Source: an uncultured Mollicutes bacterium (GTDB taxonomy: Bacteria > Bacillota_I > Bacilli_A > RFN20 > CAG-826). From it: a DNA stretch of 64,000 nt. A model generated the notes under the pieces. It was given only the letters and a program-made list of their open reading frames with translations, searched no databases and was not told where the DNA came from. The stretch's first letter is position 1. The number at the start of each line of letters is the position of its first letter. Below, in pieces: positions 30,202 through 61,445 of the stretch. The stretch covers positions 11,344 through 75,343 of the forward strand of contig UQFY01000001.1 of the NCBI GenBank assembly GCA_900540385.1. Direction: 5' to 3'. Position numbers and translations under genes: made by a program.

Positions 30202-30375
30202 CGCTTTATCTATTTGGACGATTGATTATTTGATATACTTATAAGCGCCGTTTTTCATAACCAACAATAGAGTTTCGGTTGTTAAATAGTAGTTTTAATG
30301 AATATCGCATGCAGACTCATTTTTATTTATTTGAATATTAGGTTTAAAAATTTAAATGTAAGGGGGTAAGTGAAT

Positions 30376-37207: not shown

Positions 37208-37342
37208 ATGTCAGTCAGCTATAATAAACTTTGGAAAAGATTAATCGATGAGAAAATGAAAAAGGTTGATTTAATGAGAAAATCGGGAATTAGTACAAAC
37301 GCATTGACGCATTTGAGCAAAAATGAAATTGGATGGCATTGA
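37208..37342 (+). CDS. truncated XRE/Cro-type helix-turn-helix protein (44 aa)
   Basis: ATG 37208 with SD aaagagg; MRKSGISTNALTHLSKNE is an HTH_3 helix2-turn-helix3, but ORF stops (TGA 37340) where family members continue; overlaps next gene start. Confidence 0.4.
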   Translation: MSVSYNKLWKRLIDEKMKKVDLMRKSGISTNALTHLSKNEIGWH

Positions 37343-39505: not shown

Positions 39506-39658
39506 CGCATCGGTTTAGCAAAAATGATGTCATTGTTTTAAATATCATCTCCCCTTTTTCAACTTAAGAATAGAAATATAAAAATCGGTTTCTTCGATGC
39601 CCCATCATAATCCTGCTATAATAATGTGAGCAATAAACATATAAGGAGCATAATCATC

Positions 39659-44890: not shown

Positions 44891-46276
44891 ATGGATTTAG
44901 AAGATAAGATAGGTCGGCAAGAATTTGTGGATAAAGTTTGTGGGGTGATTGATTCACTGAAAAAGGACAACCACATCTGCCTGGCAATTAATGGGTCCTG
45001 GGGAAGCGGGAAGTCGTTCGTTTTAGGAATGATTGAAGATAAGCTTTCACAAAAGCCTGAATATATCGCCATCAAATATGATGCCTGGGAAAACTCTTTT
45101 TATTCCGATCCGCTTATATCTATCCTTTCCTGCATCATTGATGAAGTAGAGGAAAAGTTCCCTTTGCCACCTGGAAAAGAGAATATCAAGCAAGCCGTAA
45201 AGGCTGGCTTTGAAGCTATTGCCGAGGTAACGCCTAAACTACAAAATCTGAAGGCTATCATCAAAGGATTGACTGCCGTTATAAAAAGCTTTCAACATCC
45301 CATTGATACGGCAGATCTTGATGAATTCAAATCGTACAAGAAGCTTTTGAAGGAAACGAAAGAACTTCTGAATAAACTTGCGTCATCGGAAGATGGCGCA
45401 AGTCAAAGCAAACTTATCATCCTTGTCGATGAGATTGATCGTTGCTTGCCTGATGAGCAATTGAAGATATTGGAACGGCTTCACCATTTGTTTGATGTGA
45501 AGAACTGCGCGGTCATCGTTACGATGAATCAAAGCTCTGTGGCAAAAACAGTGGAAACAGTCTATGGAGTTGATGGCTATGAATATCTTCGCAAGTTCTT
45601 TGACTTCACCTTTAGACTCAGCGTGTCTGCGAAAGATTATCTTAGAAATCTACTGAATGATTGCACCAAGATTTTTGTGAAAATGGGCGTGCCCGAAGAC
45701 AAGGCCGAAATTCCCACCAAGCTGGCTTGCCAATGCTTGCTGTACGGGGATAAAAAAGTCCTGGATAAAACAGATAACAGAGAGCTTACCCGATATTACG
45801 AAGGGGTAATGAATGTTTGCAATGACTTTGGATGGGAGAGAATAAGAAATCCCTATTATGTTTTCTTTGTTTTGGTGGCTTTATACATTCGAAGAGTAAT
45901 TGATCCCTCATTTTTAGATACAGAGATGATTTTGTCTAATCAGGCTAAATTTTCAAATGATTTTAAAAGCCTCTCACGGGAAGAAAGAGAGATGAAAATG
46001 CCCTATTTTGATTACTTGAAGAAGCACATAGGATTCGATAGAGAAAACCCTCCAGAAGCATTCGAACAGCTTTATCGCTGGGGAGGAAGCGACATGGCTG
46101 AGTATTGCTGGACCTTTAATGAAACTATTTATTATTCTTTGGCAAAAGAAATTCCCAACAATGATTGGAGAAGATTTTACAGCCAACCGACTGTTAATCC
46201 GGATGATTGCAAAGTGTTGTGTAAGCTAATTGTCTTATATGGCGGGGAGCAACCGAATGTAGTTGATAAAAAGTGA
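44891..46276 (+). CDS. KAP-family P-loop NTPase
   Basis: LAINGSWGSGKSFVLG Walker A and LIILVDEIDRCLPDE Walker B. Confidence 0.8.
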   Translation: MDLEDKIGRQEFVDKVCGVIDSLKKDNHICLAINGSWGSGKSFVLGMIEDKLSQKPEYIAIKYDAWENSFYSDPLISILSCIIDEVEEKFPLPPGKENIKQAVKAGFEAIAEVTPKLQNLKAIIKGLTAVIKSFQHPIDTADLDEFKSYKKLLKETKELLNKLASSEDGASQSKLIILVDEIDRCLPDEQLKILERLHHLFDVKNCAVIVTMNQSSVAKTVETVYGVDGYEYLRKFFDFTFRLSVSAKDYLRNLLNDCTKIFVKMGVPEDKAEIPTKLACQCLLYGDKKVLDKTDNRELTRYYEGVMNVCNDFGWERIRNPYYVFFVLVALYIRRVIDPSFLDTEMILSNQAKFSNDFKSLSREEREMKMPYFDYLKKHIGFDRENPPEAFEQLYRWGGSDMAEYCWTFNETIYYSLAKEIPNNDWRRFYSQPTVNPDDCKVLCKLIVLYGGEQPNVVDKK

Positions 46277-46618: not shown

Positions 46619-46891
46619 TTATTCAACACTCTCTTTGCATTTTTGAATGCATTGATCATATTTTTCTTTATTAAGTTTAAGAGAAGATATTTCTTCTTCG
46701 ATGGCCTCTCTCACTGCCTGTGCAAAAAAATCAGTATCAAAGTTTTCAGCAGGACATTCACATGTAATCTGAGAAACATCAATCTTTTCGGTATCTGTAA
46801 CAAATTTCACTAATTCTGAAAGTGAAGGTGTGTTAGTTTTTAGCTTTGCTATTTGTTGGCCTTTATAAAGAATTATGATTTCATTCGCCAT
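46619..46891 (-). CDS. hypothetical 90-aa protein, last gene of the 7-gene operon, overlapping PHP-ATPase gene end
   Basis: Overlaps upstream gene by 11 nt; no recognisable motif. Confidence 0.5.
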   Translation of the reverse strand: MANEIIILYKGQQIAKLKTNTPSLSELVKFVTDTEKIDVSQITCECPAENFDTDFFAQAVREAIEEEISSLKLNKEKYDQCIQKCKESVE

Positions 46892-49232
46892 ATTTTAATA
46901 ATCTCCGTTCTATTGCACGTTTTCCGCCATCTAGAATTTTAGATATCTTATCAAGAATGTCCTTGTATTCTAGAGCGCCATATTCGTAATTAAATTCATC
47001 ATCAGCTATTTGACTACTCAAAACAACGTTTTCGGAATCGGAATTTACTACAATGTTTGCATCATGCGTTACCACAATAACTTGTCTTTTCTTTTTGAGT
47101 TCCGAGAACCAGGTTGTCAGTTGAGTATAAATTGTTTCGTTGTCTATGTTATCTTCTGGCTGATCAATAATGATAGGGTCGTTGCTTTCTTTGAAAACAA
47201 TATATTCAAGCAAAAGATTTGCTCTAGTTCCTGGAGAGACTGTTTTTAAATCTTTCTTATTGCCAAACTCATCTTGGAATATTATTTCGTTGGTCAATTC
47301 GATTTTGTAGCTCTTAAGATGGTTTAATTCATCATCTAATTCATAGTCTTTTTTTGATTCCAGAAGAACTTCGGAACAATGGTAGCAATATACCTGAATT
47401 AGTTTGAATAGGTCTGCTTTGTCTTTTCTATTTATGTAGAACGATTTCAGCTTATTTAAATCAAAATAGCTGTTAAAAACATCAAATAAGTAATCGTTTA
47501 GGTTCTGAAAATGCAGGCTTCTTTGAAAGTAAAATTTTCTAGAATTGTAACCATTACTTTCTTTTTTAGAGCATTTATTGAAATTAAAATCAAAGATGGC
47601 CAAGTAATTATTCATCAAATGAACTCTAAAATTTATTTTATCGAATTGAGATGCAAAAGATTGTTTAAAAGTTTTAATAGCATCGTCTTTCTTTTTCTTT
47701 TCTTTATTTTGCGCATTGACTTTTGCTTGATACTTATCCGGAATTAAATATCTAAGGTTTTCTAAAATAGCCTTCTTGTTAAAAGTGAAAGTAGAAGAAT
47801 AAATTGCCTGAATATACTTTATTGCTGCTTCTTTAATTTCGGGACAATCGGCCAATTCTTTCGGGACAATTTCATTATTTGTGAGTTTTGAAAACAAGTC
47901 CTGAAAATTGCTATAAGCGACTTGATTATCTTCTTTGCCTTTGGCCCACAAAGAAATTACTTTGCAATCTTGCAGATGGACTACCTTTTTATCTAAAGAT
48001 GTAATGTTCGAATTTGTGGGAGAAGTCTGTTCAAAGCAAGTGATCTTATTTAGTAAATTATTCTTTTCTTGTTCGATACTATAAGTTTCCAAAGAAGAAA
48101 ACTCATCTTTGAAATAAACCGTGGAAACCAAATCACATTTTTTACGGAATAACTCTTGTGCGTATCCCTGATTATAATAGTCAAAATGAAAATCGTGCCC
48201 TTTTAGCGGTTCGCCATTTAAGTCGGAAACACAGTATTGAAGCTTTTCCAAGTAATCAATTCGATCTGGCTGAGATTCTGTGAAAATACTATTGGACAAG
48301 GCTGGGTTTAAATAGAAAGCAGCTCCATCAATTAAGAGACTTTTTCCCGATCCTCTACCGCCAACAACAGAATTTAGACCGGGACTAAATAAAATCCTGT
48401 TATTTCCTTGAGTTATTTCTCCAATGCATTTTCCTTTCATGTCACTTGTCAGCGTTTTTCTTTTTTTGGCAATTCGGTGGCAATCAGTTCCGACTAGTCT
48501 CAAACCATTAAATGTAGGGAGGGAATTGAAATACTGCTTTGGATTGTTGAGGTAGTTTTCTAATTTTTCGAAATTGTTGGAGTCAGAAAATGATATTACT
48601 GAAACTCTGTCTCCTCTGTCGAAATCTTTTAATAGCTCAATTGCTCTTTGAACGTTGGTGTTATTTGACGCCTCCCAAAAGCAGCACATTTGATCTATGT
48701 ATTTATCTATGTTTTGCTTTGTCGACTCTTCATCCCAATTGAATTCAATTCCACGTTTGTCTTGCTTTATGAAATGTGGGCTAATCAAAAATGGAACTTT
48801 TATCTTTGTTATTAAGAAATTTAAGAAGTTGGCAAGCGTTGGAATGTGATTATTCTTAAGAAAGGAGTTTATTTTTTCGGCTTGTGTGTTTAAATCAAAC
48901 TTTTCATCGTCAAAGTAAAATATGATGTGTTTGTAATTGTCTCCGCTCTCGCCCTCTTCTAAATATAAATCTGCTTCTAACCCGATTAGCAGTTTAACGC
49001 TAGTGTTTTTTGATAGGAATTTCTTATAAACCTCCGTGCTAATTTGGTTGTGATCCGTAAAACTGATCATCTCCAAATCTGAATGCTTTGAAAACAATGT
49101 GATTAATCGACTGATGTATGCATCCACGGACATTTTTGAAAATTCATTAGACCCTTTCGGGCATAACGGGGTGTGTATATGAAGATCCCAAACAGAACCT
49201 TCATAGGCTATTGCTCTGTTAATATCTTGCAT
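46881..49232 (-). CDS. PHP-domain phosphoesterase fused to ABC-type (AAA_21/SbcC-like) ATPase
   Basis: N-terminal PHP motifs WDLHIHTP, SFTDHN, GLEAD, SPHF; P-loop VVGGRGSGKSLL; C-terminal Walker B IIIDQPEDNID and H-loop VVTHD. Confidence 0.75.
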   Translation of the reverse strand: MQDINRAIAYEGSVWDLHIHTPLCPKGSNEFSKMSVDAYISRLITLFSKHSDLEMISFTDHNQISTEVYKKFLSKNTSVKLLIGLEADLYLEEGESGDNYKHIIFYFDDEKFDLNTQAEKINSFLKNNHIPTLANFLNFLITKIKVPFLISPHFIKQDKRGIEFNWDEESTKQNIDKYIDQMCCFWEASNNTNVQRAIELLKDFDRGDRVSVISFSDSNNFEKLENYLNNPKQYFNSLPTFNGLRLVGTDCHRIAKKRKTLTSDMKGKCIGEITQGNNRILFSPGLNSVVGGRGSGKSLLIDGAAFYLNPALSNSIFTESQPDRIDYLEKLQYCVSDLNGEPLKGHDFHFDYYNQGYAQELFRKKCDLVSTVYFKDEFSSLETYSIEQEKNNLLNKITCFEQTSPTNSNITSLDKKVVHLQDCKVISLWAKGKEDNQVAYSNFQDLFSKLTNNEIVPKELADCPEIKEAAIKYIQAIYSSTFTFNKKAILENLRYLIPDKYQAKVNAQNKEKKKKDDAIKTFKQSFASQFDKINFRVHLMNNYLAIFDFNFNKCSKKESNGYNSRKFYFQRSLHFQNLNDYLFDVFNSYFDLNKLKSFYINRKDKADLFKLIQVYCYHCSEVLLESKKDYELDDELNHLKSYKIELTNEIIFQDEFGNKKDLKTVSPGTRANLLLEYIVFKESNDPIIIDQPEDNIDNETIYTQLTTWFSELKKKRQVIVVTHDANIVVNSDSENVVLSSQIADDEFNYEYGALEYKDILDKISKILDGGKRAIERRLLKYGE

Positions 49233-49255
49233 CGGTTTCTCCTGCTACGAAAGCT

Positions 49256-52117
49256 TTACTCCTTGAACTTCAGGAAACCTTTTGTAAACCCATCTGGATT
49301 AACAAACTTTTTCTCGCCGACAGCAAAACGGACGGTAAGGTATTTGTCTTTCTTATCTATATTTATGATCTCACCATCACCGAATTTGGCATGGACCACT
49401 TTTGCACCGACTACAATCTTAGAAAAGTCTATGTTCATCGCTTCTGTATAGTCGTTTACTTGTTTCAAGATAGGCTTGATAGTGGTCTTAACTTTATTAT
49501 CTACGGGTTCTGATTTATCCGCGTTAGAAGGTTCGGGCGGAATCGGAAATTCTGAGTTCTTCATGGTTGCCTGCTGGTTATAGAAGAGTTTTTCGTATTC
49601 CTCTCTTCTGATGACGGTATCCCAACCACCGATATCCTCGCTCGTGTGTTTTTCAATGCCGGTGTAGGAAAGAGAGGAATCCTCATATCTCTTGAATTTG
49701 AAGATGGCGTCGTTCATTAAGGACGAGTTGAAAACGCCAAGAGAGCAAAGGAGTTCGAAATCTTTGACATCCAGGCCTGTGACCTTCTTGAAAAGACCAG
49801 GCTCAAGCTGTGTGATGACATCTTTGAGACATCTCTCTCTGTAATCAGTGAGATACATGAAAACAGGAATTCTGGTCGCAAACTTGATGAGCTTCTCCTG
49901 GATTTCCTTTCTCTTTGATTTGTATTCCTTCTCCTCTTCGGTGAGTTCCTTCTTTTCTTTTGGAGTGAGCTTTTCGTCCCCTTCTTGCTTTGCCTTCTTG
50001 ACATGCTCGGACTTGTTGATGATGGTCTCGATATCCGAGTTCAAGGATCGGAATCCTTCAATGCTCATCAGAGCATCCAATGCGTCTTTGTTGTTCAAAA
50101 GCTTATTGAGAGTATCGTTATCGACATTGACCAAAAGAGCGGATTCCCATCTTCTCGCAAGCAATGTCGCGGAAGTGCCGGCCATAGCGATATCCAAGAC
50201 ATCCTGAGCGTTAATCTGCTTCATGGTGGAGCCATCGTAAGCGAGCACAGGAAGGAAATTGATGAATTCAGCAACTTTTTTCTCTGGATCAGAACCATCC
50301 GGATTGAGACGACAGGAATAGTCCGAAATCTGTCTCAAGGCACGGTCCAAGGCAAAATCAAAGACGTAGCATTCCTCTTTGAGGATTGTCTCGGTTCCAT
50401 TCGAATTCTTAATCGTCCATGGGGACTGGACTCTGAAAGCCGCCTGGAAATAGGTTTCTGGCGATTTCAGATTTCTCAGCATAAAGATGCCAGTCCATGG
50501 ACGGATGGTGACACCTGTTGTTAATTTTCCGCAGGTTAAAGTGATTGTCTTTTTTTCTAAGGCAGGATCCATTGACCGTTTTACTGGGTCTACAGCGGCC
50601 AGGCCAATGCCTGCCTTTGTTCCTGCACAGAGATTGATGGTGTAGTCATGATAGAAAGTGTTTTGTCTTTCTCTGAGAAGGTTGTACATGGCTTCGCAGG
50701 AAGCGACGTTAGGCAAAAACCACAAAGTGTGAGAAAGGACATTCAGAAGACGGGTATCAGAAAACGGCATCGGAGGACGCTTATCCTGACCTAATTTTAA
50801 ATCATCAATGCTGGCGGTGAGATATTGTCCTCTGATCAAATCAAGCCATTTCTGAACTTCGTTCTTGTATTTGAAGGTGGCGTTTGCTCCTTTTCCTTCT
50901 GCGGAGAAGAAGACGTTGAGATCGAATTCGTTGAATTCGCCGTCCATGGCCACCTGTTTGATGCTGTCAGGCATCTGATAGGTCATCAAAACCATTCTCG
51001 GCAAAGAAAGATATGGGTTATTGGAACCTTTCCAATTCTCTTTGGCTCTTTGCTCATCGGAATAGGTCCAGTTGTAGATTTGGTCTTCGATGAATTCTCC
51101 GCTGCTGATGGCTCTGAACGGTGTTCCGGAAAGGAAGAGATAGTAATTTGTCGTGATAGGAAGGAAGGTTTCGTTGTACGCATTGCCGGCTTCATCGTTT
51201 TGGTATTTCTCGACATCGAAATCGGCGTCCGCTTCCTCATCCGGGTTCTCGAAAAGCTTCTTTGCGTTTTCACGCCAGGCACCGAAATGATATTCGTCGA
51301 AGATGACCATATCCCAGTTTTCTGTATGGATGAATTCGTTCTTGGCTTTGATTCCGCCATTGTCGTTCGTTCCGAGAAGGTTCTGGAAGGAACCGAAAAC
51401 GACAATAGGTTTGGATTTGTCACAGGCTTCAAATTCTTTGTCCAAGCGGGTGCTCGAATCTTTGGCATCGTTATCGGAAACGAACTGCCATCCTTCGAAA
51501 TCAATATGTGTGAGCAGATCCTCTTTCCAAGCAGATTCGACTGCTGGTTTGAAAGTCAGGATAAGGATTCTCTTTAAACCCATGCTCTTTGCCAGCTCAT
51601 AGGAAGCAAAAGTCTTTCCAAAACGCATCTTGCAGTTCCATAGGAACTTCGGTGCCTTATTCGGCTCTTCCTCTTTGGCTTTCTTGAAGTATTCTTCCGT
51701 GTATTGGACGGCTCTAACCTGTTCAGGTCTCATCTTGAATGTTGCCGTTCTTCCGCGGGTAGTGATGATGCCGGCACTGACTTCCTCGATGGCCTTCTCT
51801 ACATCTTCTTTAGTGCATTTGAACCATTCGTTCTTGTCTTCTCCGTTATAGAGCTGTTTGAATCCTTCTCTCTTTAAAATCGCATGGATATCATGATCCA
51901 TGAAGCACGTTCCATCGGAACGCACAGCAGATCTAACTAATTCGGTCTTATGTTTCAAACCACTGGTATGAAGCTGTTCGTTGATTCTGTCTTCGTAGTC
52001 CCCACGATCGGTGTATCCTATTTTCAGATATCCCTTATGAGAAGGAACATCGGGTAAGCTATAGGCATATATGGTCGGCTTGACCTCAGGTCTTTGCTTG
52101 AAAAATTCCGTTGCCAT
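49256..52117 (-). CDS. T5orf172 (GIY-YIG-superfamily, MUG113-like) domain fused to SF2 DEAD/DEAH-type helicase with C-terminal small beta-rich domain
   Basis: N-terminal TIYAYSLPDVPSHKGYLKIGYTDRGDYEDRINEQL fits the T5orf172 pattern; Walker A MRFGKTF and DEAH-like VIFDEYHF; 4-nt ATGA overlap with upstream MTase gene. Confidence 0.7.
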   Translation of the reverse strand: MATEFFKQRPEVKPTIYAYSLPDVPSHKGYLKIGYTDRGDYEDRINEQLHTSGLKHKTELVRSAVRSDGTCFMDHDIHAILKREGFKQLYNGEDKNEWFKCTKEDVEKAIEEVSAGIITTRGRTATFKMRPEQVRAVQYTEEYFKKAKEEEPNKAPKFLWNCKMRFGKTFASYELAKSMGLKRILILTFKPAVESAWKEDLLTHIDFEGWQFVSDNDAKDSSTRLDKEFEACDKSKPIVVFGSFQNLLGTNDNGGIKAKNEFIHTENWDMVIFDEYHFGAWRENAKKLFENPDEEADADFDVEKYQNDEAGNAYNETFLPITTNYYLFLSGTPFRAISSGEFIEDQIYNWTYSDEQRAKENWKGSNNPYLSLPRMVLMTYQMPDSIKQVAMDGEFNEFDLNVFFSAEGKGANATFKYKNEVQKWLDLIRGQYLTASIDDLKLGQDKRPPMPFSDTRLLNVLSHTLWFLPNVASCEAMYNLLRERQNTFYHDYTINLCAGTKAGIGLAAVDPVKRSMDPALEKKTITLTCGKLTTGVTIRPWTGIFMLRNLKSPETYFQAAFRVQSPWTIKNSNGTETILKEECYVFDFALDRALRQISDYSCRLNPDGSDPEKKVAEFINFLPVLAYDGSTMKQINAQDVLDIAMAGTSATLLARRWESALLVNVDNDTLNKLLNNKDALDALMSIEGFRSLNSDIETIINKSEHVKKAKQEGDEKLTPKEKKELTEEEKEYKSKRKEIQEKLIKFATRIPVFMYLTDYRERCLKDVITQLEPGLFKKVTGLDVKDFELLCSLGVFNSSLMNDAIFKFKRYEDSSLSYTGIEKHTSEDIGGWDTVIRREEYEKLFYNQQATMKNSEFPIPPEPSNADKSEPVDNKVKTTIKPILKQVNDYTEAMNIDFSKIVVGAKVVHAKFGDGEIINIDKKDKYLTVRFAVGEKKFVNPDGFTKGFLKFKE

Positions 52118-52120
52118 CGC

Positions 52121-53674
52121 TTAGTCCTCCATCGATTCGACGTTGTTTTCGATGAAATCTATTTCTTTTTGATTAAGACCGTATTTCTCATAGAGTTCTT
52201 TGTCGGTCCACGGCTTAGAAAAGTCTTGGAGAGGGACGTATTGATAAACTCCGGAAGCTGCTCCTTGGTCATTTTTCTTCACACCAACAAGTGCACGGAA
52301 AAATTTAGTTTTTATGTAAGACCAGCAATTCATCATTTCTTTTTCTGTTTTGAATCCACCAATAACAACGAAAGTTTCTGTACATAGTTCTCCTGGTTTA
52401 GCAAAAACAGGTTCAGAGAATTTTTCTCCAAATAAACCTGCCCCTTGGTTTCGTGCCATAAACATTTTGTAGTCGTTAATGAAATCTTTCTTTGGAATAG
52501 GATAATTAGATGGAATGTATCGTATTGCTCTTTTTGCACCATCTAATCCATAAATAGAATAGCCATTTTTAAATGGAGTTTCACTTACTGCAGGAAGCCC
52601 ATATTTTGAGGGGTTTTTGAACATGTCGCCACGAAAACCAAACGGTTTTTGTGGCGACACATGTAAGGAAAACGATTCTTCATTAAATTTCTTTACTTTT
52701 CTATAAATCGAAACCAGTTCATTATTTCTAATGAAAATATCACATCCATCTTCTAACATTGTTCTATCAGTTTCGGTCGCGACTTGGTTTCCGTTGTCGT
52801 TGATGATATGTACGACAGGGCTTGTCTTATCTCTATCCCAAAGGAAGTAATTAACACCACCTTTGATCTCAACACCTGTAAAACACAGGGATGCGTCTTT
52901 GAAATCGTGGATGATGGACATTCTGTTGTCATGGAGCATTTCGTTTCTAAAATCGTCAAGGCCCTTGCCGCCTGTCATCCAACGGGAAGGTACAATCATG
53001 GAGAGATATCTTGGCTTGAGCTTGATGGCTTGCTGAATGAACTTTTGATAAATGGGGCTGGCACTAGCTTGGGCACCTCCGTCATTGAGCTGATAAGGTG
53101 GGTTACTGATAATGACATCGAACTTCATCTTGAATACCTCCTCCACGTTCATTCCATGAATGAACTCATATGCATGTGTTTCTAAATCTTCTCTTTTTGT
53201 TCCACCCAATTCCTGTTCGCTTGCTCCGCAGTAAACACATCTTCCGTTTTTGAACGTGTGGCTGCAGTTCTTGAATCGGATGTTTCCGTCCGCATTTTCG
53301 AAATGTGTGATAGAGAACTCGCCGTTTGCGTATTTAGAACAATAGACACCGCGTCTTGAAAGAAGACTGGTCAGTTCCGTGATTGCGATTCCATAAAGCT
53401 GTTTATGGAAGATATGGTCGACTCTATCCTGAAGATCAGGGATTTGGTTTTCTAGTCCTTTGAGGAGTCTTTTTGCGATTTCTCTCAGAAAAACGCCAGT
53501 CTTGCAGGCAGGATCAAGGAATGTCGTATCCGGATTCTCGAACAGCTCTTGAGGGAGCATGTCTAACATCTGGTTGACGACATCCGGGGAAGTGAAGACT
53601 TCATCGTTGGAGAGATTGGCCAAACAGCTCAATACGTCAGGGTTATAAACCTTGCTGAATAAATCATCACTCAT
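52121..53674 (-). CDS. N6-adenine DNA methyltransferase (gamma-type motif order, Eco57I/TaqI-like) with Cys-cluster insertion
   Basis: Motif I TFLDPACKTGVFL, motif IV VIISNPPYQ; CSHTFKNGRCVYCG between them. Confidence 0.85.
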   Translation of the reverse strand: MSDDLFSKVYNPDVLSCLANLSNDEVFTSPDVVNQMLDMLPQELFENPDTTFLDPACKTGVFLREIAKRLLKGLENQIPDLQDRVDHIFHKQLYGIAITELTSLLSRRGVYCSKYANGEFSITHFENADGNIRFKNCSHTFKNGRCVYCGASEQELGGTKREDLETHAYEFIHGMNVEEVFKMKFDVIISNPPYQLNDGGAQASASPIYQKFIQQAIKLKPRYLSMIVPSRWMTGGKGLDDFRNEMLHDNRMSIIHDFKDASLCFTGVEIKGGVNYFLWDRDKTSPVVHIINDNGNQVATETDRTMLEDGCDIFIRNNELVSIYRKVKKFNEESFSLHVSPQKPFGFRGDMFKNPSKYGLPAVSETPFKNGYSIYGLDGAKRAIRYIPSNYPIPKKDFINDYKMFMARNQGAGLFGEKFSEPVFAKPGELCTETFVVIGGFKTEKEMMNCWSYIKTKFFRALVGVKKNDQGAASGVYQYVPLQDFSKPWTDKELYEKYGLNQKEIDFIENNVESMED

Positions 53675-54359
53675 AATCTTTTAACCTCTTGTAGTTCATT
53701 ACGCTCCGATGGACGAATTTGCCTTCTCCGTTGTTATTGTCGAAGAGGGTTTCCTGTCCATTTGTGTCTTGCTTAGGATTTTCGTTTTGCTTAAGAATCT
53801 CATCGAATGTGTATTCGCTTCGGGATAGCTGAGGCCCGGTTACGAATCCCCATTCGCTGAAGAGAATCGGATCTTCCTTGTCGTTTCCATTTTCATCGAC
53901 TTCATGGAGCGTCAAAGCATTCCCGCAGACGATATTCTTGGAAAGGATGAAACGGATGGAATCCCGCATATCCTCGCTGCATTCCTTTTTGCAGACGGCT
54001 TTATATTGCTTGTCCCAGATTTTGAAAAGACGCTCACGGCACGCAATCACATTGTCCATCATAATGTCCACACCATAAAGGCTAGATACCGCAAGCAAAG
54101 AGTTCTTTTCAAAATCCATGACACTTCTTCTGTATTTTTTCTTCACAACAGCCAGTTTTCTGTCGAGAATCTCTGCTAAGAAGTTTCCGTCTCCACAGGC
54201 AGGCTCCAGGAATCTGGAATCGATTCTCTGTGTTTCGTCGTTCACAAGATCACACATTGCTTTGACTTCACGCTCATTGGTGAAGACCTCGCCGTGGTCG
54301 ACGACACGCTTTCTGGATTTGATCTGCTTGTTTGCTTTCTGTTTCGTTTCTTTTGGCAT
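53667..54359 (-). CDS. methyltransferase-like N-terminal paralog (motif I present, no NPPY)
   Basis: EVFTNEREVKAMCDLV...FLEPACGDGNFL parallels the N-terminus of the downstream N6A-MTase but the 230-aa ORF lacks a (N/D)PP(Y/F) motif; overlaps MTase start by 8 nt. Confidence 0.55.
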   Translation of the reverse strand: MPKETKQKANKQIKSRKRVVDHGEVFTNEREVKAMCDLVNDETQRIDSRFLEPACGDGNFLAEILDRKLAVVKKKYRRSVMDFEKNSLLAVSSLYGVDIMMDNVIACRERLFKIWDKQYKAVCKKECSEDMRDSIRFILSKNIVCGNALTLHEVDENGNDKEDPILFSEWGFVTGPQLSRSEYTFDEILKQNENPKQDTNGQETLFDNNNGEGKFVHRSVMNYKRLKDYE

Positions 54360-54574
54360 TACTCGTCTACCTCGATCTTGTGTTTCTTGAAGTAGGGAGC
54401 AAGCTTTCTCTTTGCTTTGATGGTCGGCTGATGGGCGCCTCTTTCCCAGCGGTTCACAGTCTGAAAGGAAACACCCAAAAGATTCGCAAGTTCCGTCTGG
54501 GATAAAATCAGAGTAGTTCTCAGCTTCTTAACAGCTTCAGCATAGGTCATATGTTTGCTCCTGTTCTTGGTCAA
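54359..54574 (-). CDS. XRE-family HTH regulator (controller/C-protein-like)
   Basis: LSQTELANLLGVSFQTVNRWERG HTH_3 signature; stop overlaps downstream MTase-like gene start. Confidence 0.75.
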   Translation of the reverse strand: MTKNRSKHMTYAEAVKKLRTTLILSQTELANLLGVSFQTVNRWERGAHQPTIKAKRKLAPYFKKHKIEVDE

Positions 54575-54635
54575 AAGTATACCATTTTCTTCTCATTCTG
54601 TCGATGAATAGGACGATAAAAGTTTCGGCTTCTCC

Positions 54636-56503
54636 TTAGTTCTTGACCAACTGTTTAAGATATTCGCGAAGATTGTCATCTTCTGCATAGATGAACGTTC
54701 CTTTTACACCTCTGGTCAGAAGAACCTTATAGGTGTTTCGAATCAGTTTCTCTGCCAAAGCGCCATCTGCAGTTCTGATTCCACTTGCGGAATCACTATG
54801 GGCATTCATTTCTTTGTGGAATTCAAGCTTGCCTGTTTTCTTGTTGTAGGTAAGGTCTTTTCCAATGATGACGCCTGCATATTCGACTTCCAGTCCCTGG
54901 ATGGTATGGATACAGAACACATTCTCTTTCTGAGTTTCATCCAAAATCGCGGCTCTATCCGCCTTCTTGATATTCCAGCGAAGCTTGGTTCCGTCTTGGT
55001 ATTCGAAATCATATTTATCCAGATCATATTGGCTGACCCATTCATGGGTGTAACCGGCCATGAGTCTCATCTGATGGTTGGAATCCCAGAGTTCACTCCA
55101 TTTCTTCATCATGTCCTTCATGGAATCCATGATTTCTACTTTGTATTTCATTCCTTTTAAGGAGACATAGTCATTCGTGTAACCCAAGAAATGATTCACA
55201 AAGGAGATGTACTGTTCTCCTCCGACGCAACGGAACTGGGAAGAGAGAATCATTCGATCATCTTCAATCACCTTCGAACCATATTTTTCAGCGTATTCCT
55301 TTATCTGTTTGATGGACAAGTCATCGGAAGTGGTGACAACCTGGTCTTCGTCAACCAAGAACACATTGACTCTTGATGCATTGAATAATTTATCGATGAC
55401 ATCGACGCTTCTCTGCACGCCCCATCCGAACTTCCATTTCAGCATTCGATGAGCTTCATCGACGATGATGCAGTCGAAGTCATAGGCAGCCGATTTTGCA
55501 AAGGCGGCAGGGGTTTTGAACAACTCCTTGATGGCTTTCTTGGTGAAATCTTTGGTGAGGATATCGCCAAAATAGGTACGAGGCGTGAAATTTGCAGTCA
55601 CATAGCAGGCATTTCTTCTTTCTGAACCATCCTTCGGATGCATAAGCTGACCTAGGGCATTGATAGCCACGATGGATTTTCCAGATCCCGGTCCACCTCT
55701 TACGATGATAGTTCTTCTTTCCCCTTTTTCTAAAGCTTCCTGAACTTCACTTACTATCTTTGAAACAGAATAGGACTGCTCGGCGTCATAAGAAAAGAAT
55801 GGTTCACCGTTGATGGCATCGGCAACCATCTTGGAGAAGCCTTCGCTTGGTCGGATTTGAGAACTATCGATTTCATAGAGCGTGTTGTGACTATAAGGTT
55901 TCTTTATATATTTTGCGATGAACTCGCTGAGTTTCTTCTGATCATCTTTTAAGAATGCAGGTGCCTCATGGACGAGAGGGTATTCCTTTTCGTTTTTCAA
56001 AAGGACTTCATATCCCTCTGGCATGTTGTGGAGATAAGAGCAGGCATTCACACCGACCTTGTTGGTGTAGATGTACTCGTTGAAGTCTTTCATGATGTTG
56101 GCGTAGTTCAACGCCTGATAGGAAGGATGCCAGTAATCATCCATTCCATGCCCACCATCTGTTACGACATAGTCTTTTAGTGATGATCTTCTTACTGTAC
56201 TCCATTGTTTGAGCTCAATGAGGATGACATTTTCCTTGTCTTCTTCGTCTTTTCCAAAAATCAGGAAGTCCACTCTTTGTTTCGTGTCTACGAGTTTGTA
56301 TTCGACACCGACGCCTGCCTCTTTGGGAATGGAATTATCCTTCAAGGCTTCGGCGACCTTTGGAAGGGAGTGAATCCAGGAGTTGTACTCGCTTGGAGAA
56401 CCGCCGCCGATATGGTTCGCTTTGAATTCGTTTAAAAGCATTCGGCCGATAATCGGATTTGATCCGCTGCAACTGCTTATGAAATTTCCTACAGTATCGC
56501 TAT
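54636..56503 (-). CDS. DUF2075-like SF1 P-loop NTPase/helicase with N-terminal PD-(D/E)xK-like nuclease motif
   Basis: Start set to ATG at 56503 after SD GGAGGG (track uses a longer alternative start to 56564); VDFLIFG...ILIELKQW (D...ExK), Walker A RGGPGSGKS, Walker B CIIVDEAHR. Confidence 0.7.
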
Positions 56504-56919
56504 ATAAAATCATCAGAAACCCCTCCCATGTCCTTGCTATTAGTTTATAACAAAGATATGTCACTTTGGAAATTTTATGGAAAAAATTGACGAAAAGGCT
56601 TATGGTCGAAACTCATCATTTCTTTAAAAACGTAAAGTAATAAGCGAAACCGGGATTGCATCTCTTGATTTTGACAAAGAAAAAGGCAAATAAACGAAGA
56701 ATATAGGCGCTTTCAGCTAATGGCATGTTTAAATATTAGGGAGCCTAGGGAAGTTCTAGGTTGTTGTCCTGGCAACGTGATTAGCAACTCACGACCCGAT
56801 CAACGCATCAACGGCCTGGTTGCTGGGCTGTCTGCCTGATTAGGAGAGCAGCTTCTGATAGACAGGCAACGACGACCTACTCTTTTCACTTGTCTGTTCT
56901 CCTGAAAGGAGGACAGCCG

Positions 56920-57393
56920 ATGGCTGTCAAGATAATAACAATGGAGATCGTCTCCAAGAAGTCCGGAAAGGCCATAGAGGTCTCTTTTCCGATGGACGAA
57001 GGCCTTTTTAAGGCCTCGTTCTCCCTTCCGAAGAAGAAACGCATCCTGTTCCTTACGGAAGCGTACCGTGAGTTCAAGCACGAGGAGAAGAGAAAACGTA
57101 GATTGCTTTCCCTCGAATCCATGCTCGAAGACTGTACGGAGTTCGAAGACGGACTTGTAGACGATAGCCTCAACCCAGAAGAGCAGTGCCTCAGAAACGA
57201 AAGAGACGTTCTTCTTTACGATGCCATATCCAAACTCAACGAAAGACAGAGAAAAGTCATCGTTGGGCTTTTTTACAATGGGAAGACTCAGAGACAATTG
57301 GCCGAGGAAATGGGCATGACGGAGTCCGCTATGTCACATTTCGTTGATTATGTCTTAGCAAAGCTAAGAAACTGCCTTGAAGGAAAAATCTAA
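56920..57393 (+). CDS. sigma-70 region-4-type HTH regulator (conjugative-transposon Orf7-like)
   Basis: ATG 56920 after SD aaaggagga; C-terminal LNERQRKVIVGLFYNGKTQRQLAEEMGMTESAMSHFV is a sigma-70 region 4 HTH. Confidence 0.6.
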   Translation: MAVKIITMEIVSKKSGKAIEVSFPMDEGLFKASFSLPKKKRILFLTEAYREFKHEEKRKRRLLSLESMLEDCTEFEDGLVDDSLNPEEQCLRNERDVLLYDAISKLNERQRKVIVGLFYNGKTQRQLAEEMGMTESAMSHFVDYVLAKLRNCLEGKI

Positions 57394-57583
57394 AAATTTT
57401 TTCTCAAGTTTTGCCGTTTTCAGGGCGTCTAAAGTGAGGGGCCAAAACATTCCAACAATCACAGTGTCCAAGAAGTGTGCTAGGTATAGCTCCTAGTAAA
57501 TACACTAGACAAACTAAGCGTGAAGCTTAACAGGAATGAGAGGCCCCAAACTTTATGAAAAAAGAAAAAGGAGGCTGTATGTC

Positions 57584-58048
57584 ATGTGCGAAAGCAATGT
57601 CTTGAACACGAAGCAGATCACAAGATGCACCCTGCGTTTCTATGATCCTAGCTTCGTGGAAAAACTAAATTCCCTCTACAAGAAGGTAGGAGGTACTCAG
57701 TCCTCCTTCCTAGGAATGCTCATCAAGGAAGGATACAAGGTGATGTCTCCTCTCTATGAGAGCAATGAGGAACCTGTGTCTGAATCCGTATTGGGGGTTC
57801 TAGGGGACAAGCTCGAGAGTTCACTTTCCGAACTTAAGGAGATCCTTCTCGAGAAATCGGATGCCGAGATGAAAGGAATCTCGTCTTTGTCAGATGACCA
57901 CGTCGAGCTGCTCCGCTTCCTCTCTTGCATCTACAACCTCTTCGTCTTGATCTCCATCAACGACAAGGAAGTGAAGGACATCGCCGAGGAAGGAGGACTC
58001 GACAGAATCCCGAAGAGATTCCAGAAGGCAAACAACGCCAAGAGATGA
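57584..58048 (+). CDS. MobC-like relaxosome accessory protein (ribbon-helix-helix)
   Basis: ATG 57584 after SD aaaggagg; ITRCTLRFYDPSFVEKLNSLYKKVGGTQSSFLGMLIKEG fits the MobC RHH pattern. Confidence 0.55.
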   Translation: MCESNVLNTKQITRCTLRFYDPSFVEKLNSLYKKVGGTQSSFLGMLIKEGYKVMSPLYESNEEPVSESVLGVLGDKLESSLSELKEILLEKSDAEMKGISSLSDDHVELLRFLSCIYNLFVLISINDKEVKDIAEEGGLDRIPKRFQKANNAKR

Positions 58049-59229
58049 GCACTTCCCCGAACATCCTTCTCCGTGTCCATTACTACGAGCCTAAAAGCGA
58101 GAAACGAGGCTTCTATTCCTCAGAACGTACCAACAGCGATTACCTCGGCTACATGGACAAAGGGCACAGAAGCGGGAAGTACTCCGACTACATGGATTAC
58201 CAGGGAAACAGAGAAAAAAGCTCCGGCGTGTTCGACGGGAATGGTCTGATGGATGAGAAGAAGAAATCCGAGTTTCGGAAAGAGCTCAAGGAAACCCTCT
58301 CTGTCATCTGGGACATGATCGTCTCCACGGAAGAAGAATATGGGAAAGAGAAGCTATCTTCCTGGAAATCCGCCATGGAGCTAATCAAGGCGGAACTTCC
58401 GAAGTTTCTGGAGGACAACCACATGTCCATTGATAACGTCGGATGGTGCGGAGCACTCCATGAGAATACCGACAACCGCCATATCCACCTGCTTCTATTT
58501 GAAAAGAAGATGGAATGCTTCAATCCAGACACCAAGAAGATGAGATTCCATCAGGGAACTTTGAACAAGCTCTCGATGGAGGACTTCAAGATACGGATTG
58601 AGCAGAGACTCGATGGTCATGAGCATTCCTTCCACCGGTACAGAGACAAGCTCCTGGCCATGGAAAAGGAAAGACTCGAAGAAGTGGACGATAAGGCTGT
58701 CTACAGCAAAGACCTCAAATCGATGCTCTTGGAGCTATACCGCAAAGCTCCGAAAGGAACCTACGGATACAGAAGCGAAAAAGCGGATCCGATAAGACCG
58801 TTGGTGGACAGCATCACAACCTACATGCTCACCGGTGACGAATCCTCCCTCCTTCTCTTCATGGAGCTTCTTGGAAAGCTCAAGAAGAGAGACGAGGAAG
58901 TCAAAAGAATCTGCCAAAGAGACAAGATCGATCCTTCTCCGCATCTGTTGGCGGAGAAGTTCAAGGAGGATCTCTACCGCCGCTGCGGAAACGAGATTCT
59001 CGGCTATATCCGCAAGGCAGATACAATGGAATCGAAGATAGGCAACGGCGATGCCGTCAGAAAAAGACGCTGGGACGAAAAGAAAAAACGCGGATACCTC
59101 TTCAGTAAAGCGATGAAGCTGGATGGGCTCGTCAGCCAGGAGAGAATCAGCGTGTTCGACGAATACCGGAGAGCGCTTCAAAATGCGGAATACCAGAGAC
59201 TGAAGGAGGAAGGGGTCATCGAAGTATGA
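58045..59229 (+). CDS. MOBP-type relaxase/mobilization nuclease
   Basis: ATGA overlap with MobC stop; histidine triad ALHENTDNRHIHLLLF (HxD/N...HxH). Confidence 0.8.
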   Translation: MSTSPNILLRVHYYEPKSEKRGFYSSERTNSDYLGYMDKGHRSGKYSDYMDYQGNREKSSGVFDGNGLMDEKKKSEFRKELKETLSVIWDMIVSTEEEYGKEKLSSWKSAMELIKAELPKFLEDNHMSIDNVGWCGALHENTDNRHIHLLLFEKKMECFNPDTKKMRFHQGTLNKLSMEDFKIRIEQRLDGHEHSFHRYRDKLLAMEKERLEEVDDKAVYSKDLKSMLLELYRKAPKGTYGYRSEKADPIRPLVDSITTYMLTGDESSLLLFMELLGKLKKRDEEVKRICQRDKIDPSPHLLAEKFKEDLYRRCGNEILGYIRKADTMESKIGNGDAVRKRRWDEKKKRGYLFSKAMKLDGLVSQERISVFDEYRRALQNAEYQRLKEEGVIEV

Positions 59230-61445
59230 AAAAGAAGAAAGCATCGAAGATATTCCTGATTCTCCTCATCGTGTTCTGGATTTCCTATCTCCTTGGTCTT
59301 GTTCTCTCTTGCCTAGTGCATAAGGGATTCGAACCCCGTTGCCTTATCTCCAGGGAGACGATGGGATTCACAGCACTGTTCCTTCTTCTGTCTTTGGTGG
59401 CAGTCCTTCTATACGCCTACAACCATTGGTGGATCTTCCGCTCGAAGAAGATCATGGAAGGGAAGGACAGCGACCTCCATTTCTCCGCCAACCTCGAGGA
59501 AGCGAGATTCCAGAGCGAGGAAGAGATGAACAAGAATTACGGAACCTATGATTTCGAAAAGCTCAAGGACAGGGAAATCACTGGAGCCATCATCAAGGCA
59601 AAGGAGGTAGACGGAAAACTGAAGGTAACCTTCGCAAAACCCGCCCATACGTTGGTCATAGGGACTACGGGCTCTGGGAAGACCGCTACCTTCGTCAACC
59701 CTTCCATCCAGATCCTAAGCGAGCTGAAGAACCATCCGTCGATGCTCATCAGCGACCCCAAAGGAGAGCTCTATCAGTCCAATGCCAAAGCGCTGAGGAA
59801 CAAAGGATATGAGGTCAAAGTCCTTGATCTAAGAAATCCGTACAACTCCGTGAGATGGAATCCGTTGGAAAGACCTTATCTGCTCCACCAGAGAGCAATG
59901 GGGCTCGAGAAGGAAATCACAACGGACGAGGAGCAGGGTTGCTACTTCTTCGAAGGCAACCAGTATTGGTCTAAGGAAGAAGTGGACTGCGCCATCCAGG
60001 TGAGAAGACAGCAGCTCAACGACCAGGTCTACGAAGACTTGAACGACATCTGTGCCGTCCTTTGTCCGGTGACGAACAAGGAGGAGCCCATGTGGGAATC
60101 CGGAGCCCAGCACCTGATTCTGGCGATTGCCCTGGCCATGCTCGAGGATTCTGGCGACCCGAAGCTAGGGATGACGAAGGAAAAATACAACTTCTATTCC
60201 ATCATGAAGGTGGCAACTTCTACGGAGGACGAGTGCAAGGAGCTCATCGACTACTTCCACAATAGAAGCCCTCTTTCGAAATCTTCTTCCCTTTCTAAGC
60301 AGGTCATGGATTCCTCAGACAAGACCAGAGGCTCCTATCTTTCTTCCACGTTCGACAAGATATCGATGTTCTCGGATTTGTCGTTATGTGCATTGACCTC
60401 GTCAAACGAAATAGAGTTCGGCTCCATGGGAGAGAAGCCCATCGCACTGTTCTTGCAGATACCGGATGAGAAGGAGACAAGACATACCCTTGCATCCATG
60501 GTGATACTCCAGGCCTACAAGGAACTTGTGAACAAAGCAAACAGCTATCCTTCTTTGTCTCTTCCAAGACCCGTCTACTTCCTTCTCGATGAGTTCGGAA
60601 ACCTCCCGAAGATCCATAAGCTCGAGCAGATGGTGACGGTCGGAAGAAGCCGCAACATCTGGCTTGACCTCGTCATACAGAGCTATTCCCAGCTTTCGAA
60701 GGTCTACGACGAGAAATCCGCCGACATCATCAAGAGCAACTGCAACATCCAGGTCTGGATAGGATCGACCGATTTGAAAAGCGCCGAGGAGTTCTCCAAG
60801 AGATGCGGGAACTATTCCATCGTCCAGAGAAGCGTCGGATACCAGAGTGCGAAAGCCGATGACATCAGTTCGAACTCCAGCGTGAAGGAAAGACCTCTTA
60901 TCTATCCTAGCGAGCTTCAGACTCTGAACAATCCTCGGGACATGGGCCATGCCATCGTGACCGTGTTCGGCTACCAGCCGATAAGAAGCACGTTCACGCC
61001 TTGCTTCCAGGTTCCCCAGTTCGATATGGAGAAGATCGATCAGAAGCTTGAAAAAGGACGCTTTTTCGACGAGAAGAACGCCTATTACGACATGAAGAAC
61101 AGAAACAGGATCGTGATGGAAAACCGAGGGAAGAAAACCTCTGCCGTCTCCGATCTGCCGAAGAACAGCAACGAGCAATACCGCACCAAGCTCATCCTGG
61201 AGCAGATCCTGAAGAAGGCGGAAGACGGGATAGATGGAATCCTGGATGACGCTGATTCGGCTTCCTTGGCCGATGCCATCCAAAGACATGACACCCAAGG
61301 TTCCGTCGCTCTTATAGAGAAGGCGGAGAAGAAGGCAAGAAGCAAAGGGAAACTGAGCAACCTGGAGATATTGGAAGACGTAAAAGGCCGGATCATCTCC
61401 TTCTTCGCAGAAGAGGAGAGGCCGCCGATGAACAGAAAAAGCTGA
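59226..61445 (+). CDS. type IV secretion coupling protein (VirD4/TraG/TcpA-like)
   Basis: Two N-terminal TM helices; Walker A LVIGTTGSGKTATFV; Walker B-like VYFLLDEFGN; ATGA overlap with relaxase stop. Confidence 0.85.
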   Translation: MKKKKASKIFLILLIVFWISYLLGLVLSCLVHKGFEPRCLISRETMGFTALFLLLSLVAVLLYAYNHWWIFRSKKIMEGKDSDLHFSANLEEARFQSEEEMNKNYGTYDFEKLKDREITGAIIKAKEVDGKLKVTFAKPAHTLVIGTTGSGKTATFVNPSIQILSELKNHPSMLISDPKGELYQSNAKALRNKGYEVKVLDLRNPYNSVRWNPLERPYLLHQRAMGLEKEITTDEEQGCYFFEGNQYWSKEEVDCAIQVRRQQLNDQVYEDLNDICAVLCPVTNKEEPMWESGAQHLILAIALAMLEDSGDPKLGMTKEKYNFYSIMKVATSTEDECKELIDYFHNRSPLSKSSSLSKQVMDSSDKTRGSYLSSTFDKISMFSDLSLCALTSSNEIEFGSMGEKPIALFLQIPDEKETRHTLASMVILQAYKELVNKANSYPSLSLPRPVYFLLDEFGNLPKIHKLEQMVTVGRSRNIWLDLVIQSYSQLSKVYDEKSADIIKSNCNIQVWIGSTDLKSAEEFSKRCGNYSIVQRSVGYQSAKADDISSNSSVKERPLIYPSELQTLNNPRDMGHAIVTVFGYQPIRSTFTPCFQVPQFDMEKIDQKLEKGRFFDEKNAYYDMKNRNRIVMENRGKKTSAVSDLPKNSNEQYRTKLILEQILKKAEDGIDGILDDADSASLADAIQRHDTQGSVALIEKAEKKARSKGKLSNLEILEDVKGRIISFFAEEERPPMNRKS

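Follow-up and report, generated by a model that had tools for sequence, protein, structure and literature searches.

Type ISP restriction enzymes (LlaGI, LlaBIII) are single polypeptides in which a nuclease, a superfamily 2 (SF2) ATPase translocating on double-stranded DNA (dsDNA), a gamma-class N6-adenine (N6A) methyltransferase and a recognition domain follow each other from the N- to the C-terminus, the nuclease being of the Mrr/PD-(D/E)xK type. Type III enzymes combine a beta-class Mod with a Res that carries a C-terminal PD-ExK nuclease. A further arrangement is found in DnmA (YeeA)-YeeB-YeeC of Bacillus subtilis and Vibrio, where a mobile operon encodes a gamma-class N6A methyltransferase modifying one strand, an SF2 helicase and a T5orf172 protein (PMC9973331). 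Ppl and TrlF are single-gene systems of 870-940 amino acids (aa) with an N-terminal PHP domain and an ABC/SMC-like ATPase, and Nhi and Nhi-like proteins unite a DUF2075 superfamily 1 (SF1) helicase and a putative N-terminal nuclease in one protein. Here we compare these systems with a block of seven genes (g1 to g7, from 56564 down to 46619 on the minus strand) in a stretch of DNA of 64,000 nucleotides (nt) from an uncultured Mollicutes bacterium (assembly GCA_900540385.1, contig UQFY01000001.1, positions 11,344 to 75,343), which we call the window. A preliminary description of this block, made from the sequence alone, had presented the seven genes as one composite defense system that could not be mapped onto a described type. 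We consider it likely that the block is instead a stretch of a defense island, carried as cargo by a human-gut conjugative or mobilizable element, and that it holds three functionally separable units (g1; g2-g5; g6-g7). Every module can be assigned to a known kind: g1 is Nhi-like, g4 and g5 correspond to the halves of the PADLOC model PDLC03626, and g6 is a relative of Ppl and TrlF.

The core of the block is formed by g3, g4 and g5, hereafter the triad. A scan of a genome collection with g5 yielded 80 loci from different species (related loci are numbered with the prefix L), with g5 identities between 60 and 89%. Gene order was counted in the 64 loci with enough upstream DNA, and the presence of g6 or g7 in the 63 loci that have 3 kb or more of downstream DNA. 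The three genes have the same order and strand in 62/64 loci; in the remaining two g3 is present and the best g4 match is partial. These loci are spread over Bacillota, Bacteroidota, Fibrobacterota, Chloroflexota, Spirochaetota, Verrucomicrobiota and Pseudomonadota. A homolog of g6 or g7 follows the triad in none of the 63 loci, and g1 was found in one of the 80. Clustering of all open reading frames (ORFs) in the triad loci revealed no further shared family except small HTH regulators, divergent in 16 loci and co-directional in three, and integrases/recombinases. The g5 family is very large, with more than 8000 close homologs in a word-indexed search and 1114 clusters at 50% identity (E<=1e-30).

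The protein encoded by g5 (49256-52117), a candidate restriction subunit, consists of an N-terminal T5orf172 (GIY-YIG-like) domain at aa 16-113, an SF2 DExH translocase, a helical region and a C-terminal Tudor-like domain. Pfam detects T5orf172 (8.5e-9) and ResIII (1.6e-6), along with MUG113 (1.8e-8), and the T5orf172 catalytic residues and the motor motifs (GKT Walker A, DEYH, SGTP, QAAFR) are invariant in the alignments. The helicase thus carries an N-terminal T5orf172 domain in place of the C-terminal PD-ExK nuclease of type III enzymes, as had been read from the sequence. An AlphaFold model, built on an alignment of 37 sequences that are all at least 73% identical, reached a mean pLDDT (predicted local distance difference test) of 58; its usable parts are the T5orf172 domain, the first RecA lobe and the C-terminal barrel. 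Weak Foldseek matches to Snf2/ISWI, ZorD, EcoR124I HsdR and RadD, all dsDNA translocases, were obtained with this model. The C-terminal domain (49301-49411, minus strand, aa ~903-939) resembles the PcrA/UvrD-Tudor and CarD-RID domains: the Pfam matches to PcrA_UvrD_tudor (1.6e-4) and CarD_TRCF_RID (2.4e-4) each lie just under the gathering score, PDB entries 6yi2 and 7egs are matched at E~0.05, and the region forms a beta-barrel in the model with a pLDDT of 80-89. In the proteins after which they are named, PcrA/UvrD-Tudor or CarD/TRCF-RID domains bind RNA polymerase. Most members of the g5 family are 800-870 aa long and have no such C-terminal barrel extension.

The gene g4 (52121-53674), always located between g3 and g5, encodes a methyltransferase of the Eco57I family (Pfam, 3.8e-35; PADLOC MTase_II, 2.5e-49) with motif I LDPACKTG and motif IV NPPY, whereas the match to MmeI_Mtase is only 0.0019. 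Its target-recognition region (52400-52849, minus strand, ~aa 276-425) is hypervariable, with a per-position identity to 67 homologs of 0.13-0.38 as compared with 0.7-0.9 at aa 1-250. The GC content at third codon positions (GC3) breaks within the gene, from 0.51 in the catalytic half (52895-53674) to 0.31 in the recognition half (52121-52894), a pattern that shows the recognition region to be a probable import and is consistent with a recent recombinational switch of specificity. In locus L002, moreover, g3 and g5 are 92% and 89% identical to the window genes but g4 only 54%. Because of the GC3 break, the hypervariable region and an identity decoupled from that of g3 and g5, the recognition domain of g4 appears to have been swapped.

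The least explained part of the triad is g3 (53667-54359). The preliminary description had noted a methyltransferase-like protein without NPPY, and this is confirmed: only the N-terminal half of MmeI_Mtase is matched (2.5e-6) and NPPY is absent. The family alignment has invariant HGEVFT (motif X), FLEPACGxG (motif I), YGV(D/E), N(I)xxG(N/D)AL and PI(V/L)F(S/A)EW motifs, with PIVFSEW standing in g3 where (D/N)PP(Y/F) is expected, and the protein ends about 60 residues further on. In a comparison of the g3 and g4 families with hhalign, motifs X-I alone align (probability 97.5), and the best match among solved structures is the N-terminus of M.BseCI (E 0.046). Among the matches listed for g3, all homologs are at least 91% identical, and the gene was analyzed from sequences derived from the loci. 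We infer that g3 is the N-terminal half of a gamma-class methyltransferase that may serve as an S-adenosylmethionine (SAM)-binding but catalytically inactive subunit.

Upstream of the triad, g2 (54359-54574 as first read; 54359-54550, 63 aa, with a revised start) is a candidate small XRE/HTH_3 regulator of the C-protein type that would head a g2-g7 transcription unit. It matches HTH_3 in Pfam (1.3e-10) and, over its full length, Control_protein in PADLOC (3.7e-6). A co-directional HTH gene precedes g3 in L002, L067, L079, L162 and L169, and a divergent one in 16 other triad loci. C-protein-controlled restriction-modification operons have a small HTH gene at their 5' end and a C-box operator; g2 has that position, and no C-box was found, although no search aimed at one was made. 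The domain matches thus bear out the restriction-modification-like core with a controller-type HTH protein that had been recognized earlier, and suggest that g2-g5 is a widespread, HTH-controlled and ATP-dependent system resembling restriction-modification.

The triad has the same predicted activities as the type ISP enzymes, with the motor, the gamma-class N6A methyltransferase and the variable recognition domain distributed over g5 and g4. Relatives in which g5 and g4 are fused (1319-1464 aa) also share the type ISP order of nuclease, motor, methyltransferase and recognition domain. An Enterococcus faecium plasmid (L182) encodes such a ResIII-Eco57I fusion of 1445 aa, preceded with an 8-nt overlap by a g3-like protein of 248 aa annotated as ‘N-6 DNA methylase’. 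In contrast to the type ISP enzymes, the window triad splits the activities over two genes, adds g3 and has T5orf172 as its nuclease with no PD-(D/E)xK match. It also differs from type III systems, since g4 is a gamma-class Eco57I protein and g5 has no RE_endonuc domain. The closest catalogued model is the PADLOC type IIG entry PDLC03626 (1359 positions), of which g5 covers positions 20-801 (1.6e-35) and g4 positions 863-1353 (8.3e-43), at moderate scores. Because this model, derived from PADLOC/REBASE, matches both proteins, fused members of the g5 and g4 family already have a catalog entry as restriction-modification enzymes. However, PDLC03626 describes one chain, whereas the window has separate genes in a permuted order, the methyltransferase preceding the nuclease-helicase; and the label IIG, which implies a single-chain, ATP-independent enzyme cleaving at a fixed distance, fits the triad poorly because the DExH motor is conserved.

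With DnmA-YeeB-YeeC the triad shares the linkage of an N6A methyltransferase to an SF2 helicase and T5orf172. In that system, however, helicase and T5orf172 are separate proteins and T5orf172 is C-terminal, whereas in g5 they are fused with T5orf172 at the N-terminus. DnmA itself is a protein of ~880 aa of the MmeI family, without a described g3-like subunit, and thus differs from the Eco57I-type g4. For the signature proteins of BREX (PglX, PglZ, BrxC), DISARM (DrmABC), Septu (PtuAB) and Gabija (GajAB), PADLOC gave only marginal matches, to PglX at 3e-4 to 5e-3, owing to the methyltransferase fold, and to GajB at 3e-3, for g1, with no partner genes. In the literature we found no paper that describes the triad, its biochemistry or the constant inactive half-methyltransferase subunit. 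We also considered g3 and g4 as an anti-restriction methyltransferase from the leading region of an integrative and conjugative element, and rejected this candidate since the triad occurs in many non-conjugative contexts and the recognition region is hypervariable.

In 18 of ~62 triad loci a variable extra gene is inserted between g4 and g5, for example at L004 8936-9943, L009 8954-9982, L030 2058-3996, L077 1625-2467 and L035 3846-4874, with 13 further loci. These genes encode Abi_2, HEPN_Apea, an AAA_21 and DUF4276 pair, a RES-domain protein or ORFs without a Pfam match. Accessory genes inside type I loci include Fic, RhuM and GIY-YIG examples (PMC9881135), and the triad operon therefore seems to gather restriction-linked cargo as type I loci do. 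In L162 (1018-4216; g5 90% and g6 74% identical to the window genes) an insertion sequence with a DDE_Tnp_1 transposase interrupts g4 and leaves g5, g6 and g7 intact, so that the nuclease-helicase is apparently tolerated without its methyltransferase.

The third unit starts with g6 (46881-49232), which has the architecture of the PHP-ABC ATPase superfamily. The ABC/SMC ATPase is clear in Pfam, and the PHP match is weak (5.9e-4, under the gathering score). An alignment of 62 sequences nevertheless supports both parts, with invariant H18, H20, D60, H61, E86, H153 and D217 as PHP metal-binding residues and invariant G296-K297-S298, S666-P667-G668, D690-Q691-P692-E693-D694 and H723 in the ATPase, where Walker A, signature, Walker B and H-loop are present. 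The AlphaFold model (pLDDT 84.5) contains a PHP domain and a head of the SMC/RecN/Rad50 type with a coiled-coil insertion; Foldseek matches it to the heads of SMC, RecN, Rad50, AriA and JetC and to the PHP domain of Pol III alpha and RNase AM. The invariant residues and the model thus uphold the earlier assignment of a PHP-ABC ATPase behind the helicase gene.

By profile score, TrlF is the closest curated family to g6 (NCBIfam, 3.2e-64 and 218 bits, with a cutoff of 350), followed by Ppl (2.9e-27 and 95 bits, cutoff 1000), whose alignment spans the C-terminal 190 residues only. PADLOC matches are to Ppl (1.6e-22) and PDC-M49A (4e-10). Like g6, Ppl and TrlF have an N-terminal PHP domain and an ABC/SMC-like ATPase, and it is the C-terminal ATPase half that aligns. 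They differ in size (g6 has ~780 aa), in the scores of g6 far below their cutoffs and in their single-gene organization; the plasmid-borne TrlF genes that were inspected stand alone, whereas g6 is always accompanied by an acidic partner of ~90 aa. At least 578 homologs of g6 were identified. A metagenome scan with g6 returned mostly distant matches to the C-terminal ATPase, and the full-length family members among them were L082-L087 only. A scan of viral contigs gave only distant Ppl/TrlF-like matches, a sequence search of solved structures no informative relatives, and a literature search for ‘TrlF’ only unrelated matches. The methylation-associated defense system MADS (MAD1-MAD8) was tried as a candidate and rejected: the NCBIfam scores were 16.3 bits for MAD1 (cutoff 80) and 22.9 and 19.7 for MAD2 (cutoff 720), the PADLOC match to mad3 (3e-8) reflects generic ABC similarity, and no further mad genes are present.

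The partner g7 (46619-46891) encodes an acidic protein of 90 aa (isoelectric point, pI, 4.7) without a family match in Pfam, PADLOC or NCBIfam. In each of the 17 loci examined, from ~15 lineages, the g6 homolog (~780 aa, 35-87% identical to g6) is followed by an overlapping g7 homolog of 84-105 aa with a pI of 4.2-5.2. The pair g6-g7 therefore has the features of a portable and autonomous two-gene cassette, related to Ppl and TrlF yet outside both.

The genomic contexts of this cassette are diverse. It follows the triad in the lineage of the window, namely in L169 (g6 87% identical) and L162-164 (g6 74%), in the order HTH-g3-g4-g5-g6-g7, and again in the deeply diverged L083 (g6 36%, g5 63% identical), with the same order and a 3-nt gap between g5 and g6. 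The neighborhood of T5orf172-helicase and PHP-ATPase that the preliminary description had noted does recur in this second locus. Elsewhere, g6-g7 stands directly 3' of a type I HsdR gene (L172/173; in L171 with a DUF2130 gene in between), behind HsdM-HsdS (L082) or behind a type III Mod-RhuM-Res operon (L085, 1738-10638), in which RhuM lies between Mod and Res and the type III pair carries N6_N4_Mtase and ResIII/RE_endonuc domains. Other neighbors are a SAM methyltransferase (L170), Fic (L177-179) and AAA_14 (L174), and some copies are solitary in islands with AIPR, retron-type reverse transcriptase, Abi_2 or HEPN genes. In L177 (7064-10596) the Fic gene precedes g6-g7 by 10 nt, and a dndCDE cluster is close by. 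Fic and RhuM near g6-g7 are further cases of accessory-gene stacking in modification-based defense loci. About 13 of the ~15 lineages have no triad, and nine of the ~15 have no adjoining restriction gene at all. In a neighbor-joining tree of g6 the genomic contexts are interleaved and the two triad-linked lineages fall in distant clades, a pattern that points to six or more independent junctions between the cassette and ATP-dependent restriction operons. At each of these junctions, be it with a type I, a type III or a triad operon, the genes run in one direction, and most gaps measure 3-24 nt. The most fitting view of g6-g7 is therefore that of a further item of restriction-linked cargo.

At the other end of the block, g1 (54636-56564 as first read; 54636-56513, 625 aa, with a revised start) encodes the predicted DUF2075 helicase, now confirmed by a Pfam match to SLFN-g3/DUF2075 (PF09848) at 1.2e-69. 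N-terminal matches to PDDEXK_4 (0.032) and NERD (0.045) are weak and below cutoffs, although a D...ELK motif is visible. PADLOC gave partial matches to Nhi (9e-8, helicase core), AbiO (1e-8) and PDC-S41 (4e-14), and a scan of viral contigs with g1 returned no relatives. With Nhi and Nhi-like proteins g1 shares the DUF2075 SF1 helicase and possibly an N-terminal nuclease, but its Nhi match is partial and weak and its nuclease domain below significance. Among the related loci g1 is found only in L002 and L169; of the 80 triad loci, L002 alone has g1 and g2 together. In the sister locus L169 (568-2451; g6 87% identical) it is split into fragments of 174 and 337 aa, with g2-g7 intact. A promoter-like site (54576-54604, minus strand; TCGACA-17 nt-TATACT with an extended -10 TG, 10/12 matches in a consensus scan) lies in the spacer between g1 and g2; such sites are not more numerous in the region than expected from shuffled sequences, so that this one is suggestive only. 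Because it is absent from L083, broken in L169 and separated from g2 by an 85-nt spacer with a promoter-like site, g1 is, judged from these comparisons, a stand-alone Nhi-like single-gene defense candidate and a unit separate from g2-g7.

The seven co-oriented minus-strand ORFs of the preliminary description and their domain assignments were all reproduced, and the ORFs do not arise by chance, since each protein has hundreds to thousands of homologs. Two starts were revised: ATG 56513, preceded by a GGGAGG ribosome-binding site, is the likelier start of g1, and ATG 54550, with a good ribosome-binding site, that of g2. Both starts agree with the public gene calls of a human-gut metagenome contig of identical sequence (L001, 156 kb). 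With these starts the g1/g2 spacer grows from 61 to 85 nt. The other junctions are a 1-nt overlap (TAATG) for g2/g3, an 8-nt overlap for g3/g4, a 3-nt gap for g4/g5, a 23-nt gap holding an AGGAG ribosome-binding site for g5/g6, and an 11-nt overlap for g6/g7. The packing is therefore tight, as had been claimed, but none of the six junctions is a strict 4-nt ATGA overlap, and the claim of ATGA-type junctions does not hold. The composition is mosaic: GC3 amounts to 0.50-0.55 in g1, g2, g3, g5 and the N-terminal half of g4, to 0.33 in g6 and to 0.21 in g7. Because of this break from the rest of the block, g6-g7 is probably an import.

From these data a mechanism can be proposed. The g4 protein would read a specific and probably asymmetric sequence with its swappable recognition region and methylate an adenine of the host DNA. 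On unmethylated DNA, a g4-g5 complex would translocate along dsDNA by means of the SF2 motor of g5, and the T5orf172 (GIY-YIG-like) domain of g5 would cut. The triad would thus follow the domain logic of type ISP enzymes, split into subunits and equipped with another nuclease, with g3 as an obligatory third subunit that may act as a cofactor sensor or in assembly. The cassette g6-g7 would have been imported downstream of g5 and would probably be co-transcribed with it; cassettes such as g6-g7, Abi_2, HEPN, AAA_21-DUF4276 and RES have repeatedly settled within ATP-dependent restriction operons or at their ends.

Several points weigh against this reading of three separable units with an active restriction system at the center. 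Sequence searches of solved structures with g5, a g5 profile, g4 and the fused Enterococcus protein returned no restriction-enzyme relatives, and none of the four shows sequence similarity to the solved LlaGI/LlaBIII chains. The motor class of g5 rests on motifs and weak fold matches because its model is poor. DnmA-YeeB-YeeC of B. subtilis showed neither restriction nor phage protection (PMC9973331). The survey of g6 contexts is small, with ~15 lineages and without a matched control. Finally, the order g2-g7 is kept in L162-164 and L169 as well as in L083, across g6 identities of 74-87% and 36%, respectively, so that the triad and g6-g7 may be functionally linked. The co-occurrence of the components in other genomes was thus found in part: g2-g7 recurs in these loci, but the full seven-gene set is largely absent elsewhere, an outcome that the preliminary description had itself named as refuting its claim.

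Such a link could be that of a guard. A portable g6-g7 may be coupled to the adjoining ATP-dependent restriction enzyme and fire once a phage blocks or overwhelms restriction, DNA mimics with anti-restriction activity being one example, with the acidic g7 restraining the PHP nuclease. This model, which overlaps with the reading of three separable units, is drawn by analogy: PARIS and the PrrC and RloC anticodon nucleases, the latter in type I loci, act as a second line when restriction is blocked. PrrC and RloA/B/C are accessory inserts in type I loci as are g6-g7 and the Abi_2, HEPN, AAA_21 and DUF4276 and RES genes in their operons, and the model is attractive in view of the six or more independent junctions and of the other abortive-type cargo in triad operons. 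The modeled g6 ATPase also resembles AriA of PARIS (8v46, 8ux9 and the AriA-Ocr structure 8v45), and the g6 homolog of L083 matches PADLOC AriA at 1.8e-8. This likeness is, however, generic to SMC-like ABC heads, with a template modeling (TM) score of ~0.2; PARIS (AriA-AriB) includes a Toprim gene that is lacking here, and compared with PrrC, RloC and PARIS the effector of g6 is a PHP domain instead of an anticodon nuclease or Toprim, with many copies away from restriction genes. The nine lineages without an adjoining restriction system point in the same direction, and since restriction-modification systems are the commonest systems in islands, adjacency may reflect insertion hot spots or piggy-backing on promoters. 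We thus regard the guard as a tentative and rather doubtful model; the tie between g6-g7 and restriction operons may be functional or may be no more than transcriptional piggy-backing.

A second alternative concerns the triad itself, which could be a non-cleaving epigenetic or otherwise non-canonical module, either an orphan-like methyltransferase with a relic helicase-nuclease or a BREX-like block of replication. The B. subtilis dnmA-yeeB-yeeC operon gives the precedent, and phages do not avoid its motif, yet the Vibrio DnmA-YeeB homologs are reported to affect phage sensitivity (PMC9973331). The intact g5 beside the interrupted g4 of L162 indicates that g5 is not lethal without its methyltransferase, but such a loss would be tolerable if restriction depended on the methyltransferase/recognition subunit, as it does in type I, III and ISP systems. 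Moreover, a very large family keeps the nuclease and motor motifs invariant, the hypervariable recognition region is typical of specificity switching in an arms race, and the mobility, the island setting and the C-protein-type regulators all point to active restriction. A non-cleaving triad is therefore improbable. A joint reading, in which g6-g7 would be a new two-gene family of restriction guards (g7 silencing the PHP nuclease, which fires when phage anti-restriction factors block the motor) and the triad an abundant class of ATP-dependent restriction systems requiring an inactive, SAM-binding g3, appears possible but speculative.

That the seven genes, or at least g2-g7, form one obligate multi-component defense system of a new type, working as a single machine, is very unlikely and the corresponding claim of the preliminary description fails: tight packing, translationally coupled junctions, the absence of a terminator between g5 and g6 and the order HTH-g3-g4-g5-g6-g7 in L169, L162-164 and L083 speak for it, but g6-g7 is found at 0/63 triad loci and g1 at 1/80, g6-g7 also stands alone or beside type I and type III systems, its two triad-linked lineages in distant clades indicate independent junctions and not co-inheritance, the GC3 discontinuity marks it as an import, and g1 is broken in L169.

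Under the reading of three separable units, tight packing and co-orientation in a defense island are not evidence for a single system, and restriction operons would act as landing pads for unrelated cargo. The triad would be one of the commoner uncharacterized restriction-like systems in gut and rumen bacteria; its characterization could establish a GIY-YIG-type, multi-subunit branch of the ATP-dependent restriction enzymes and reveal many new m6A (N6-methyladenine) specificities, which influence how genes move through the microbiome. If g6-g7 is coupled to restriction enzymes, it would add a further case of layered defense, in which restriction is backed by an abortive-type guard. Most worth pursuing are g3, presumably an obligatory inactive half-methyltransferase, and the repeated joining of g6-g7 to ATP-dependent restriction operons.

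The wider window agrees with the designation of the block as defense DNA: the genes are almost certainly anti-phage genes and lie in a defense island, where unrelated defense systems are expected side by side. The nearest relatives of the block belong to uncultured Bacilli and Bacillota of the gut. Scans of the window with Rfam and for tRNA genes were negative. Minus-strand ORFs of 809 aa (13031-15460) and 719 aa (24070-26229), in or near the defense island, have no Pfam match at E<=1e-4. On one side of the seven-gene block a large defense island extends over 21274-46276. It contains three AAA_14/DUF4143 ATPases (21274-22626, 27463-28713 and 42395-43678), an ASCH-domain protein of 619 aa (30370-32229), an SF1 helicase (33019-35781) followed by AbiH (35816-37018), a metallophosphoesterase (37323-39041), GmrSD (39626-41566) and a KAP-family NTPase (44891-46276). 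On the other side lie a small protein resembling sigma-70 region 4 (56890-57393, plus strand), a MobL-family relaxase (57925-59229) and a type IV coupling protein of the TraG/VirD4 type (59226-61445). Given these mobility genes at 56890-61445, the island would be cargo of a conjugative or mobilizable element.

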